The notes under the pieces were generated by a model. The model saw only the letters and a program-made list of their open reading frames with translations, ran no database searches and had not been told where the DNA came from. From positions 1 through 64,000 of IMG/VR virus record IMGVR_UViG_3300021399_003927: 64,000 bases of DNA, one strand, 5' to 3'. The stretch comes from a virus. Its lineage: Duplodnaviria > Caudoviricetes. Shown here one piece after another: positions 33,667 to 62,896 of this stretch. A program made the translations under genes and the position numbers. Numbering within the stretch: position 1 is the first letter of the stretch; the number at the start of each line of letters is the position of its first letter.

Positions 33667-35076
33667 TCAAGTTGTTAGACTCTTAATTTTATTCTCTACG
33701 ACCTCAAAGCATTCATCTTTCGTAATGTTTGGGTTTTCGAAATAGGCATCTTTGACTGCCTCAAGCAGAACTCCAATTATCGGCCCACCTTTTAATTTAA
33801 ATTCTGCCATAATGTCTTTTCCATTTATAGGCAGTTTGATGTTGGCCATCTTATCAATGTCCTCAAGCTCTTCTATTCTGTTAAGAAGGTCGTACACTTG
33901 TCGTTTTTTCTTGCCGTATGTGGAATGTAGGTTATTGGCGTTCATTAGGTCAACCACTGTTCCGATGTCGTTTCCGCATAGATTCATGAACTTTCTGATT
34001 TTCTTATCTGGAGGTACTACACCATCCGCATAGATTTTGAAAATCCTATGATATTCTATAGCAGTTTGTACACTTTTAATGATGTAGTTTGGAAACTTCA
34101 TCATCTTCAAGTCTGTTGCTGCCACTTCTGCACTAAACTTGTCAGGACTAACTGTTCTCATTCTATCAGTAACAATCTTACCAACGTCATGGAATAACGC
34201 TGCCAATCTGCTTTCAAGGTATGGCTGCGTTTCGTCCAACACATTCATTGTATGGTCAAATGTTGTCACCATTGGGTTTTTAGACTCATACGCAAAGTTA
34301 GTGTCGTATATATCTGGCATTACCTTGTTCAGCACGCCACAGTAATACATTTTCCTTATGCCAACGCTAGGTTTGCTGCATGACAGAATTTTTGAAATTT
34401 CATCACTGATTCGTTCTTGTGATACGATTTCCAACCTATTTACGTTTTTAATCATACCAAGCCATGTGTCCTTATCAATACCCCATCCTAGACGAGTTGA
34501 GAAACGAATGACACGCAATATGCGCAATGGGTCATCGTTAAAAATGATGTCTGGGTCACTTGGTGTTCTAATGACTTGGTTGCACAAGTCATCCAAACCT
34601 TTTTTGTTGAAATCAAAAATCTGTTCTGTGCTGATGTTGTAGTAAAGAGCATTAATTGTCAAATCCCTTCTTGCAGCATCTTCTTCAATTGTTCCAAACG
34701 CAGTATCAGGATTTCTGCTCTCTTTTCTATATTGCTCCTTACGAGTCTGCACACATTCTATTTCAATGTCCTTTAGGTCTTCATCCTTGTACAATTGGAA
34801 CTTGGCTGTACCATAGTTCTCAAATACCACTGGGTTTGTATTGGCCGCATAGCACTGATTACGGATGGCCATAAAGTTAGCAAACAGTATCCCACCGTTG
34901 TGGATTTCTACAACAATATCAATGTCTTTGACTTTTTGTCCTAACAGCAAATCCCTTATACATCCACCAACGTAATACACCTTTCCTTCAAAATGCGTAC
35001 CTTTGATACATTGCTGAATAAGGTTTGTTAACTTTATTATTCTCTCGTCAGCATTCTTAAATAATACTTCGTTCAT
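33667..35076 (-). CDS. cca: tRNA nucleotidyltransferase (CCA-adding/poly(A) polymerase family) with HD domain
   Basis: VGGCIRDLLLG...KDIDI, EDAARRDLTINA, DDPLRILR.IRF, LFHDVGK. Confidence 0.9.
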   Translation of the reverse strand: MNEVLFKNADERIIKLTNLIQQCIKGTHFEGKVYYVGGCIRDLLLGQKVKDIDIVVEIHNGGILFANFMAIRNQCYAANTNPVVFENYGTAKFQLYKDEDLKDIEIECVQTRKEQYRKESRNPDTAFGTIEEDAARRDLTINALYYNISTEQIFDFNKKGLDDLCNQVIRTPSDPDIIFNDDPLRILRVIRFSTRLGWGIDKDTWLGMIKNVNRLEIVSQERISDEISKILSCSKPSVGIRKMYYCGVLNKVMPDIYDTNFAYESKNPMVTTFDHTMNVLDETQPYLESRLAALFHDVGKIVTDRMRTVSPDKFSAEVAATDLKMMKFPNYIIKSVQTAIEYHRIFKIYADGVVPPDKKIRKFMNLCGNDIGTVVDLMNANNLHSTYGKKKRQVYDLLNRIEELEDIDKMANIKLPINGKDIMAEFKLKGGPIIGVLLEAVKDAYFENPNITKDECFEVVENKIKSLTT

Positions 35077-35309
35077 TGGTAAGTATTTACAAATTCTTCT
35101 ATAACTTTCTGAATCCATTTTCTATTCATGTCCGCCCAATACCGAAAACCTTCATTAGTTTTGTTCCAAGGAATTGAGGCCACTGTAAAAAATGGCTTAT
35201 TAGGGGCTTGTCCAAACTTTCTTAAATAATAACAGTATTTCACGTAACACCCATTCTCTTTTAAGAACTTTGAAAGTTTGGGGCTAATCTGTTTTTCGCT
35301 TTCCATCAA
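35073..35309 (-). CDS. Small hypothetical protein
   Basis: FLK...WNKT.EG..YW pattern; coupled ORF. Confidence 0.6.
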   Translation of the reverse strand: MMESEKQISPKLSKFLKENGCYVKYCYYLRKFGQAPNKPFFTVASIPWNKTNEGFRYWADMNRKWIQKVIEEFVNTYQ

Positions 35310-59895: not shown

Positions 59896-59993
59896 TGTTT
59901 TTTAAAGTTAATAATGTTGTTGTTAAATTTCGGTGCAAATATATGAAAAATAAATGGAATAACCAAATATTTTAGCATTTATTATGCATTTTG

Positions 59994-60068: not shown

Positions 60069-60164
60069 AAACTAAGTATACCTAGAACACCTTTCAACAT
60101 TGATGAACTTCATAACAGTAACGGCCTATTACCGTTATGCTCTATCAACATCTAATCAATGTTG

Positions 60165-60861
60165 TGGGCCTAGAGGGGCTTGAACCCACGACCTTCAGAT
60201 TCATGCTACACTATGTTACCATAGTCAAACAAAGCTTGTAAAACCATTACGACTGCTCTTGGGTCAGCACTTTACGCATCTTACGCTATTTCAGAAGCCT
60301 TCTGAGATTTTACAAATTGCTTTCTATACCCCTCTGTACCTTAGAGTCGTTGACCAGTATAGAAACTTTGTTTGTTGTAGTCTGGAATACATCTTTACCA
60401 TATTGAAATTCTTGCAAGATTATGTTAGGGCTGAAACCTTTTGAGGTAAGACGTATCTATCTCATATATAGCAGTTTCTACACTCTGCTTTAACATAAAT
60501 TTCAACTTAGGTATCTCCTATATACTCTCTACACATTTATGAATGTAGCATACTTAATCATTAACTTTTCTGAAGCGTATTTTCATTCTCATTAGAGATT
60601 TTTTCGCCTCTACATTCAATTTAGCACGGTATAATCCTTACACATTATTGGTTAGTGTTGTGTTAGTTCGCCTCAAGGTAGCACGGATAAATCCGTGTCG
60701 TTCTTCAGGCTACCACTCGTAGGTTTAATGACTAACTCCATTAAAAGGACTTCCACCGTTTTAGGGAGATTCTACATAGGGATTTCTCGCCTATGCACAC
60801 AATTGTGAAACGCTTTTCACATCTATGAGTCTGCTGCTCTAACCAACTGAGCTATAGGCCC
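60165..60861 (-). tRNA. tRNA-Ile2(CAT) interrupted by a group I intron; exons 60825-60861 and 60165-60201
   Basis: Joined exons give GGGCCTA-TA-GCTC-AGTTGGTTA-GAGC-A-GCAGA-CTCAT^AA-TCTGA-AGGTC-GTGGG-TTCAAGC-CCCTC-TAGGCCC-A. Confidence 0.92.
60202..60824 (-). mobile_element. Group I intron (IC3/Azoarcus-like), 623 nt, no homing endonuclease ORF
   Basis: 5' exon ends in U, intron ends in G; IGS GTG; P3 ATCTCC/GGAGAT; P7 GAGTATA/TGTATTC; CCTAAG...TATGG receptor in P8; GAAA loop on P2. Confidence 0.9.
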
Positions 60862-61002: not shown

Positions 61003-61222
61003 TATATGGTTTATTCAATAATAATAATAGTCTTCGTCATAAAACTCGTCTTCGTAGTCTTCATCACCATTTTCTATGATGTCCATTACGTCCTCTTCGG
61101 AGATTCCCAACTCATCGGCTATGTCTTCTACTGTATAGCCGTCTTCAATCATGTTGTAAATTTCTTCTTCCATAATAATTTTTTTGCAAATATATGATTT
61201 TTATTTTTAATAACCAAATATT

Positions 61223-62678: not shown

Positions 62679-62896
62679 TTCATATACTTTTTATTAAATT
62701 TTTTGCAAATATATGAAAAAAAATTGAGAAAGACAACCATCTTCCTCAACTTTAACAATCTTTAATTTTACATTTGTTCTGTGCTCTGTTTATCTTGTTG
62801 TAAAAGTTAATCCTTTTCAACTTATCAGTAGACTTATTGGCTGTAGCCAAATAAGAATTCTTAGCTTTTTTCTTTTTATTTAAACTAGTCATATTG

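Follow-up and report, generated by a model that had tools for sequence, protein, structure and literature searches.

A transfer RNA (tRNA) gene of a large gut phage, a tailed virus (Duplodnaviria; Caudoviricetes), is interrupted directly behind its anticodon by a 623-nt insert that we read as a self-splicing group I intron. The gene lies on the minus strand at 60165-60861 of a stretch of 64,000 nucleotides, referred to here as the window, which is the first 64 kb of the 129,491-nt IMG/VR record IMGVR_UViG_3300021399_003927 (CheckV completeness 44%). Our reading, to which we give a probability of roughly 88%, is that the insert is a group I intron capable of self-splicing, that the phage tRNA(CAU) housing it is most likely tRNA-Ile2, and that the intron belongs to a mobile family and is likely carried as a tolerated selfish element. 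The split gene contains no open reading frame (ORF) in its insert and escapes routine annotation. ARAGORN without its intron option (the default) and Rfam were both blind to a tRNA at 60165-60861, while four or five ordinary tRNAs were found elsewhere in the window. With introns allowed, ARAGORN called a well-formed 75-base tRNA(CAT) at 60164-60861(-), with a 623-nt intron between CTCAT and AATCT. The interruption falls after anticodon position 36 (36|37), and the gene has the following parts, for which the supporting evidence includes minimum free energy (MFE) folding.

60825-60861, minus strand: 5' exon of tRNA(CAT), 37 nt, ending in the anticodon CAT with U at -1 (ARAGORN; continuous with the 3' exon in cr131_1)
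60202-60824, minus strand: group I intron, 623 nt, 36.9% G+C, ORF-less (ARAGORN, MFE, covariation, guide/exon table)
60202, minus strand: terminal G (omega-G) before the 3' splice site (ARAGORN; RNA-library joint to intron nt 21)
60165-60201, minus strand: 3' exon of tRNA(CAT), 37 nt, running through the discriminator A, with no encoded CCA

A BLAST search of the region against 50,697 phage records aligned both tRNA halves adjacently to a 70-75-nt stretch in three records (H1-H3). In the crAss-like phage cr131_1, the one of these three records that was inspected, the stretch is an annotated uninterrupted tRNA that is identical across the junction. Because the halves align gaplessly to uninterrupted phage tRNAs, a chance pairing of unrelated halves is excluded. 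The insertion at CAT^AA and the length of 623 nt, both proposed in a preliminary description of this DNA, are confirmed by the ARAGORN call and the uninterrupted allele, on the minus strand. The exons differ from the cr131_1 allele at few positions, in the acceptor stem and the T loop, and the acceptor-stem differences are compensatory. One U-U mismatch in the T stem of the split tRNA is also present in the intron-less cr131_1 allele and is therefore a property of the tRNA lineage.

When the intron-less allele was compared with E. coli, the eight best full-length matches listed were all annotated as tRNA-Ile, with an identity of 77.6%, and the one match inspected has the anticodon CAT. The split tRNA(CAT) also contains the acceptor pairs C4-G69 and C5-G68, which we take to be TilS determinants in E. 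coli. Judged by these likenesses, the split tRNA(CAU) is probably tRNA-Ile2 rather than an elongator Met. The isoleucine identity given in the preliminary description accordingly stands as probable, by virtue of the tRNA-Ile(CAT) matches, rather than as proven against elongator Met.

The longest stop-to-stop frame on the sense strand of the intron is 59 aa, under table 11, TAG=Q or TGA=W alike, and a homing-endonuclease or maturase ORF was found in the 623 nt under none of these three codes. A group II intron, an archaeal bulge-helix-bulge intron and an integrated element were also considered, and were dropped given the group I helices, the U-1/terminal-G ends and the intron-less allele.

Splice-site choice in group I introns depends on an internal guide, and the preliminary description had named a GTG triplet. 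The intron contains two, at nt 5-7 and nt 25-27 (intron positions convert to the window as 60825 minus the intron position). The first GTG was ruled out as the guide: it lies in a hairpin of L1 that is absent from two other tRNA(CAT) copies of the intron family (L032 and L043), while the GTG beside P2 is kept. It is the second GTG, directly 5' of P2, that bears out the earlier proposal. This triplet (60800-60798) pairs with exon CAU to give a 3-bp P1 that includes a U.G pair, and a 3-bp P10 forms between the adjoining ATT (60803-60801) and the AAU that opens the 3' exon.

60804-60821, minus strand: hairpin inserted in L1 (intron 4-21), whose last three bases CAC mimic CAU (RNAfold MFE; absent in L032 and L043)
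60798-60803, minus strand: internal guide (guide/exon table, 31/31 members)

L1 of the window copy is 24 nt long, and the CAC that ends its hairpin directly precedes the circularisation site described below.

Guide and exon match across the family. The members whose two ends could be placed number 31, of which 29 come from tRNAs and 2 from primase genes. Each of the 31 has, immediately upstream of P2, a triplet that pairs at every position with the final three bases of its exon, the pair at -1 being U.G. These members fall into five exon/guide classes: CAU/GUG (the window copy, L032 and L043), UCU/GGA (Arg, after position 36), CUU/GAG (Leu, Ser, Lys, Arg after position 34, and primase), ACU/GGU (Leu, after U33) and UGU/GCA (Tyr, after U35). 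When exons and guides were paired across classes, only 1/20 combinations was complementary. A terminal G is present in 30/31 introns, the exception (L042) ending in A. P10 reaches at least 2 bp in 30/31 members and 3 bp in 18/31, and its bases change with the 3' exon: TTC/GAA in Ser, TAA/TTA in Lys and TTA/TAA in the Leu members split after U33. For L013, L031, L040 and L042 the ARAGORN splice positions were moved by the U-1/terminal-G rule. Left out of the table were the third copy of the same genome (P1 unresolved), the truncated copies L014, L015, L025, L027, L038 and L046, four copies behind a complete tRNA (L044, L052, L045.1 and L054), two cut at contig ends (L023 and L041), L028 (endonuclease ORF, with its 3' end beyond the extract), and the unresolved loci L034, L033 and L047-L050.

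A 5' splice site after U with a G.U wobble in P1, a terminal G and a P10 are features of group I introns, and the fold supplies the remainder: a P3-P7 pseudoknot, P4-P6, P8 and P9 in canonical order, and a G-C pair of P7 next to a bulge. The structural elements of the window copy are given below.

60773-60797, minus strand: P2, 8 bp, a bulged C, 2 bp and a closing GAAA tetraloop (L2, 60783-60786); intron 28-35/45-52, bulged C36, 37-38/43-44; compensatory change in 7/10 pairs; RNAalifold
60765-60770, minus strand: 5' strand of P3, ATCTCC (intron 55-60), paired with 60513-60518; 98.3% of cells paired; RNAalifold
60513-60518, minus strand: 3' strand of P3, GGAGAT (intron 307-312), crossing P7 to form the P3/P7 pseudoknot
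60626-60759, minus strand: P4-P5 domain (MFE, covariation counts, RNAalifold), with J4/5 reading GGAA
60755-60759 with 60626-60630, minus strand: P4 (intron 66-70/195-199), invariant
60745-60750 with 60634-60639, minus strand: P5 (intron 75-80/186-191), compensatory change in 2 pairs
60640-60744, minus strand: P5 extension, 105 nt, including a conserved ACAC...GTGT hairpin
60540-60618, minus strand: P6 with a 61-nt extension (79-nt domain), P6 being 60610-60618 with 60540-60548 (intron 207-215/277-285); MFE, RNAalifold
60521-60529, minus strand: 5' strand of P7, G[A]GAGTATA, with bulged A297 and G298, paired with 60384-60391
60384-60391, minus strand: 3' strand of P7, TGTATTCC, with J8/7 AAAGA before it; covariation; P7 comprises G296-C441, bulged A297 and intron 298-304/434-440
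60397-60512, minus strand: P8 with the 11-nt receptor motif (intron 313-315/426-428 and 319-327/415-423)
60506-60511 and 60398-60402, minus strand: the two strands of the 11-nt receptor motif, CCTAAG (intron 314-319) and TATGG (intron 423-427)
60411-60497, minus strand: P8 extension, 87 nt
60206-60380, minus strand: P9 domain, with closing helix CTAC (60377-60380) and GTAG (60206-60209), intron 445-448/616-619
60225-60375, minus strand: P9 extension, 151 nt
60211-60224, minus strand: terminal hairpin with GTAA tetraloop (L9; intron 601-614)

Covariation was assessed in two alignments, one of 20 subfamily-A sequences (A2) and one of 16 sequences from both subfamilies (A1). In the former, 97.2% of 1318 cells were paired as against 31-47% when partners were slid by 1-3 columns, and 19 pairs had changed on both sides as against 2-6 when slid; 0/500 shuffles attained any of five measures. 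In the latter, 92.0% of cells were paired versus 36-44% when slid. The P5c hairpin showed compensatory change in four pairs, and the closing helix of P9 covaries (UA 11, CG 6 and UG 3 of 20 rows). We count P9 as a 4-bp helix, because a candidate fifth pair is conserved in just 3/20 rows. Without a supplied model, RNAalifold recovered P2, P3, P4, P5, P6, P8, P9, an inner P9 helix and the L9 hairpin, P7 being missing because it cannot nest with P3. The unconstrained single-sequence MFE structure contained 54/66 core pairs, including P2, P4, P5, P6, P7 and P8, and lacked only P9 and P3, the latter being pseudoknotted with P7.

The variant P7 (GAGTATA/TGTATTC) noticed at the outset was located at intron 298-304/434-440, preceded by G296-C441 and the bulged A297. 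Relatives carry the canonical form GACTA/TAGTC, which covaries with it, and the third P7 pair is G.U in 9/16 and C-G in 7/16 rows of A1, so that the variant is a canonical helix with one compensated change. The P7 of the window copy contains two G.U pairs. G296-C441, bulged A297 and G298-C440 are kept in 18-19/20 subfamily-A rows, and in a relative the P7 S element can be aligned with AAGAUAUAGUC, the consensus in the Rfam model RF00028. The bulged A297 and the G298-C440 pair are the probable guanosine-binding site, to judge from this conservation. An 11-nt tetraloop receptor had likewise been proposed, and CCTAAG/TATGG in P8 is unchanged in 36/36 aligned rows (A1 and A2). The large ORF-less extensions of P5, P6, P8 and P9 were measured at 105, 61, 87 and 151 nt, and the core without these four inserts is about 219 nt.

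Although the peripheral inserts vary freely from copy to copy, entire modules turn up again: the window copy, L024, L044 and L052, which differ elsewhere, have the 79-nt P6 domain in common letter for letter. An insert of about 56 nt (45 nt in L036), TGAGGGAAA...GAATG, occupies an unusual core position between the P3 3' strand and P8 in 5/20 subfamily-A copies (L043, L051, L036, L053 and L045; alignment A2, columns 611-666). Motifs that resemble a T arm, GGTTCGA(A/G)TCC, occur in the P9 extension of several copies, for example in L016 and L020 around the GGGTTCGAATCCC segment, and positions 6074-6178 of L020, inside the intron, score 29.3 bits with the Rfam tRNA model, representing a tRNA-like/T-loop module within a tRNA intron.

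The intron belongs to a family that occurs at 46 IMG/VR loci; two other tRNA genes in this genome and, in two crAss-like phages, the primase gene also house members. An exact-pattern scan of IMG/VR with the core pattern gave 22 loci, and ARAGORN placed the element within a tRNA anticodon loop in 15 of these. A scan with the subfamily-A P4/J motif gave 35 stretches, 24 of them new, on contigs of 8-413 kb. Among 185,579 prokaryote species, represented by one genome each, there was a single match, on a 42.6-kb contig of a metagenome-assembled genome (MAG) that also bears other tRNA genes. Both ends were resolved for 12 of 25 new matches. The tabulated members are 461-751 nt long and ORF-less. At least eight tRNA settings are occupied (Ile2/Met, Arg at two positions, Leu at two positions, Ser, Lys and Tyr), to which a Gly-like case may be added. 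The most frequent host is tRNA-Leu(UAA), with 14/29 tRNA-borne members, 12 of them at U34|A35 with a CUU/GAG P1; the other sites are U33|U34 in Leu, U34|C35 and U36|A37 in Arg(UCU), and sites in Ser(UGA), Lys(UUU) and Tyr(GUA). The two tRNA(CAT) genes on other contigs, L032 and L043, share both intron site and guide with the window copy. In L028, an IMG/VR contig with an interrupted tRNA-Leu(TAA), an ORF after P7 appears by eye to be a homing endonuclease of HNH/NUMOD type, the sole such copy noticed. A suppressor tRNA(UCA) with intron, called 'SeC' by ARAGORN (L031), was rejected, its exons reading as tRNA-Leu(UAA).

The family also interrupts a protein gene. In a BLAST search the conserved core (window 60499-60543) matched IAS virus between two coding sequence (CDS) fragments both annotated 'DNA primase'. 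At 85.2-88.3 kb of this genome (NC_049978) lies a 599-nt member (L001) inserted at GACTT|AAAAT, the same letters as a tRNA-Leu anticodon loop. Removal of the insert keeps the frame, exon 1 (621-1190) being 570 nt and exon 2, from 1790, being in frame with the CDS annotated from 1766. The primase of cr116_1 (NC_055882, 17.8-20.2 kb; L063) is split likewise. Both phages are Steigviridae, and both records annotate the primase as two CDS and carry no intron annotation.

Two more copies were found in the same genome, both beyond the window, by BLAST and by nhmmer with three conserved blocks. One (L004, 79558-80093(-)) is a 461-nt paralogue in tRNA-Arg(TCT), inserted after TCT and with guide GGA, whose intron is about 68% identical to the window copy over alignable parts. 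The other (L005, 82800-83358(-)) is a third paralogue, also in a tRNA. ARAGORN labels its host Trp(CCA), with an unusual long arm; phage tRNA-Gly is the best match of the 5' exon, and the body fits a Gly(UCC) tRNA with C in place of U at position 33. By homology this intron ends in ...GGTAAG before CAAGCTGA, which places the 5' splice site after C, with guide GAAG. Read in this way it would have C at -1, a non-canonical arrangement comparable to Leu.3Cg of Williams, unless the copy is damaged.

Incomplete and rearranged forms recur as well. At six loci (L014, L015, L025, L027, L038 and L046) there is a conserved truncated ribozyme, intact from P2 through the P7 3' strand and with a perfect GAGTAT/ATACTC P7, that has no G-initial guide, P9 or terminal-G segment. 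A conserved ...GTCAGCCCCTAACAA... motif (CAGCCAGCCCCTAACAA in L046) comes before the ribozyme at no fewer than five of the six, and the four inspected on the 3' side all have tRNA-type T-arm sequence within a few bases. These truncated forms may have arisen repeatedly by decay, or they may be ribozymes derived from group I introns that now serve a different purpose, such as processing the end of the downstream tRNA. At L044, L052, L045.1 and L054 a full ribozyme with guide GGA stands behind an intact long-arm tRNA of 82 nt (anticodon TCT). What comes after the ribozyme in L044 and L045.1, the two inspected, is an ordinary tRNA-Arg(TCT) reduced to its 3' half. The only UCU open to the guide at loci of this type is that in the anticodon loop of the upstream tRNA, and the arrangement looks like a rearranged locus.

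Transcripts of the region were sought in RNA libraries. Fourteen rows of RNA-filed runs, all animal gut or rumen metatranscriptomes, contained 31-55% of the region's sampled words. Four runs from four studies were mapped; all are stored as contigs rather than reads, and contig depths sum over relatives. Many RNA contigs match the conserved core and then diverge in the peripheral domains, and therefore derive from relatives of the window intron. One 273-nt contig of run X1 matches without mismatch and joins window 60751-60801 directly to 60199-60420. In the RNA sense the joint runs from the terminal G to intron nt 21 and can be drawn as G623|A21, with three letters (ATT, plus strand) fitting either side. 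The genomic DNA lacks this arrangement, which is the junction expected of a circularised group I intron. Immediately before the joint stands CAC, which is able to pair with guide GUG in the manner of exon CAU. The idea that the excised intron persists gains some support from this 5'-truncated circular form in one library contig, and the group I structural reading of the preliminary description now draws on this joint together with the covariation and the guide/exon matching.

In the pathway we propose, the pre-tRNA would be transcribed together with its neighbours. Guide GUG would pair with exon CAU to form P1 with U.G at the cleavage site, and AUU would pair with the 3' exon to form P10. The core of about 220 nt would fold into the P3/P7 pseudoknot, P4-P6, P8 and P9, the GAAA of L2 would dock into the CCUAAG/UAUGG receptor of P8, and about 400 nt of extra helices on P5, P6, P8 and P9 may buttress the A+U-rich core; such tertiary contacts, and this role for the extensions, are those suggested by the structural model. 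Free guanosine at the bulged-A/G-C site of P7 would then attack after U-1, after which the terminal G would take the P7 site and the exons would be ligated to a normal 74-nt tRNA. The released intron would circularise by attack of its terminal G after CAC (nt 18-20), with loss of the first 20 nt. The retained landmarks suggest that the RNA alone could catalyse these steps. At the level of the family, a mobile element has colonised many tRNA anticodon loops and the primase gene of large gut phages, probably by change of the guide triplet.

Among known group I introns the closest resemblance is to the subgroup IC3 introns of bacterial tRNAs. The layout of the Azoarcus intron, which we take to be a GAAA loop on P2, an 11-nt receptor in P8 and an L9 GNRA loop with its receptor in P5, is recognisable in part here: the Ile2.5Ug site, L2 GAAA, the P8 receptor motif and an L9 GUAA loop are present and conserved, while a receptor for the L9 tetraloop was not identified in P5 of the window intron. 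IC3 introns are compact (about 200-250 nt, no large peripheral domains), in contrast to the 623 nt of the window copy and the 461-751 nt of the family. The IC3-like layout put forward earlier is consequently upheld in tRNA site, loops, P8 receptor and covarying helices, and departs from the class in compactness. Judging from these sequence likenesses, the intron probably works like, and probably derives from, the IC3 tRNA introns, a statement better supported than formal membership in IC3. In Tetrahymena-type introns a core of about 200 nt is similarly ringed by non-coding stabilising helices (P5abc, P2.1, P9.1/9.2), whereas the extensions of the present family are placed elsewhere, unrelated in sequence and exchangeable between copies.

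The identity of the site with that of the Azoarcus tRNA-Ile intron, also pointed out earlier, holds: CTCAT|AA is Ile2.5Ug in Williams' scheme, and the two introns share a CAU tRNA, the 36|37 position and a CAU/GUG P1. The four classical tRNA settings, Leu.3Ug, Arg.5Ug, fMet.2Ug and Ile2.5Ug, are all listed as IC3 (Williams 2020, 10.1101/2020.01.27.920355). According to PMC13168695, the Azoarcus intron is 205 nt long, close to the core of about 219 nt and one third of the 623 nt of the window intron; it too forms 5'-truncated circles through its terminal G, with loss of a short 5' piece of 2-4 nt as against 20 nt here. The window intron further differs in its P5/P6/P8/P9 inserts (105, 61, 87 and 151 nt) and L1 hairpin, in being A+U-rich, and in being encoded by a phage rather than a bacterium, the two having been compared by their descriptions. 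Bacterial tRNA-Leu introns are matched by the Leu(UAA) members at Leu.3Ug, with U-1 and terminal G. Group I introns of phage protein genes (T4 td/nrdB/sunY, Twort, SPO1, Bastillevirinae, crAss-like Delta/Zeta) are likewise phage-borne, and the family shares with them its occurrence in a protein gene (primase) and, in L028, an HNH-type ORF.

Several observations weigh against our interpretation. RF00028 gave no match to the window copy at E<=10, whether a 1.2-kb stretch, a focused 221-nt stretch or the whole 129-kb record was searched, and none to five other family loci; the gathering score of this model is 50 bits, and the same search was above the cut-off in 2/14 control genomes. A subfamily-B relative on the MAG contig gave a weak match (21 bits, E 0.004), mainly to the J8/7-P7 element, and the insertions, about 400 nt in all, plausibly account for the failure. 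The insert is thus, on its sequence features, a group I intron by structural definition that fails the curated sequence test. The fold model was built from the window copy and its relatives, so the slid-partner control is flattering. In subfamily A, P4 is constant and P3, together with most of P7 and P8, hardly changes; such pairs, for want of variation, are neutral on pairing. Part of the 31/31 guide count is not independent, because four boundaries were set by the U-1/terminal-G rule. L042 ends in A and L035 has T replacing the P7 G, and since these copies carry damaging changes not every copy need be active. The circle junction comes from one contig of one run, and reverse-transcriptase template switching at the 3-nt repeat could also have produced it. 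Finally, no ligated-exon junction was present among the 15 joints listed of 97 from the contigs of the four RNA runs.

With these points in view, three other explanations were weighed. The intron may have been co-opted by the phage, as the preliminary description envisaged, to gate tRNA maturation (timing, GTP/Mg2+), to shield the anticodon loop from nucleases or premature charging, or through some role of its domains or circle. Such use would suit the presence of the family in three tRNA genes of one genome and its occurrence in Lys(UUU), Tyr(GUA) and Arg(UCU), which are classes attacked by known anticodon nucleases. Intron RNA is moreover widespread in animal-gut RNA libraries, the circular form included, and some peripheral domains, such as that of P6 (79 nt), are letter-identical between otherwise different copies. 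The spliced tRNA is, however, the same as the intron-less allele, so the mature anticodon loop is unprotected, and close relatives possess the same tRNA without an intron. The family also sits in a primase ORF, where ideas of this kind do not apply, its peripheral domains differ freely between copies, and the HNH-type ORF of L028 and the rearranged or damaged copies are typical of selfish elements. We regard co-option as unlikely; the spread over many tRNAs and primase via guide changes fits a selfish mobile element better. Most likely the phage tolerates the intron as a selfish element and does not use it for regulation, because there is an intron-less allele, the host genes are unrelated, one copy has an HNH-type ORF, and truncated and rearranged copies exist.

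The remaining explanations concern activity. Catalytic landmarks are kept family-wide (U.G at -1, terminal G, the bulged A and G-C of P7, J4/5 and J8/7), extensive peripheral RNA usually takes the place of protein assistance, and the circle junction points to terminal-G transesterification in vivo, although a helper protein would still be compatible with it. These observations make it quite improbable that the group I fold has been kept while autocatalysis was lost in whole or in part, so that a phage or host protein cofactor is needed. What speaks for such a cofactor is the A+U-rich core (36.9% G+C) with two G.U pairs in P7 of the window copy and the failure of Rfam to recognise the intron; a cofactor could hide among the window proteins, 7/9 large ORFs having no PHROG match. 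A dead tRNA gene, a pseudogene from which the insert is never correctly removed, might be suspected from the U-U mismatch in the T stem and the damaged family copies elsewhere. This we consider very improbable indeed, given that the intron-less cr131_1 allele has the same mismatch, that exon differences from it are few and compensatory in the acceptor stem, that P1, P10 and terminal G are intact in the window copy, and that the tRNA(CAT) genes of L032 and L043 keep intron site and guide. Self-splicing of a tolerated mobile intron remains the reading we prefer.

The way in which the family moves is a separate matter. Guide-directed ectopic transposition of group I introns has long been proposed from laboratory experiments. 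Movement by reverse splicing is suggested here because guide and P10 are retargeted together with the site and because the primase site copies the tRNA-Leu loop; the number of tRNA settings (at least eight) and the swapping of peripheral domains between copies point the same way. That these are the first group I introns in phage tRNA genes, forming an Rfam-invisible and mostly ORF-less family that moves by reverse splicing and not by endonuclease homing, is a tentative proposal, to which we give somewhat less than even odds. If the reverse-splicing part were true, gut phages would offer a natural system for guide-directed ectopic group I transposition, readable from genomes. Five guide/exon classes in one closely related family are in any case an unusually clean natural record of retargeting.

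The family is apparently undescribed. According to Hausner et al. 2014 (PMC3984707), all phage introns then known lie in protein-coding genes despite the many phage tRNA genes, and the passages on introns in a Zeta-crAss paper of 2025 and in a 2021 overview of jumbo phages name protein genes alone. A search of the full-text literature, a body with most subscription journals and supplements (Yutin Supplementary Fig. 12, Williams tables) beyond its scope, turned up no phage tRNA gene described as carrying an intron. The Williams survey covered bacterial and archaeal assemblies only, required an Intron_gpI or derived-model hit, and distinguished 21 settings (10.1101/2020.01.27.920355). According to Yutin et al. 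2021 (PMC7886860), crAss-like introns were found via endonuclease domains in protein genes; because that approach relies on such domains, ORF-less tRNA introns would escape it. The rule that phage introns avoid tRNA genes is broken many times over by the present family, and intron censuses that proceed through RF00028 or endonuclease ORFs miss the whole class. The tRNA sets of large phages are under-counted, since three tRNAs of this genome escape default ARAGORN and Rfam, and annotation breaks interrupted genes, for instance the crAss-like primases, into fragments. Large natural ribozymes with exchangeable peripheral domains, whose RNA is present in animal-gut libraries, may also be of use for structural work and circular-RNA engineering.

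The surroundings of the split gene were examined for context. A PHROG scan of nine large window ORFs named only a tRNA nucleotidyltransferase and a nicotinamide phosphoribosyltransferase. The former, a CCA-adding enzyme (33667-35118(-), PHROG 2244, E 4e-63), fits tRNA genes that, like the split tRNA(CAT), have no encoded CCA. The 10-mer TATATTTGCA occurs at 16 sites in the window, 15 of them on the minus strand, as against 0.56 expected, and 0/100 shuffles reach 16. The sites inspected lie upstream of ORFs or tRNA blocks, for example at 59934-59943(-), 61185-61194(-) and 62704-62713(-). The 10-mer resembles the TAnnTTTG -7 promoter element of Bacteroidota; it hints at a Bacteroidota host and at a transcription unit that runs from 61194, takes in a small acidic ORF (61173-61015) as well as the split tRNA, and extends as far as the tRNA that follows. 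With introns allowed, ARAGORN made 40 tRNA calls in the 129,491-nt record, several of them spurious. A tRNA with anticodon CTA, an amber suppressor called 'Pyl' by ARAGORN, lies at 63924-64009(-), and the record contains five CAT-anticodon tRNAs, including two unusual long forms at 65290-65372 and 67577-67650.

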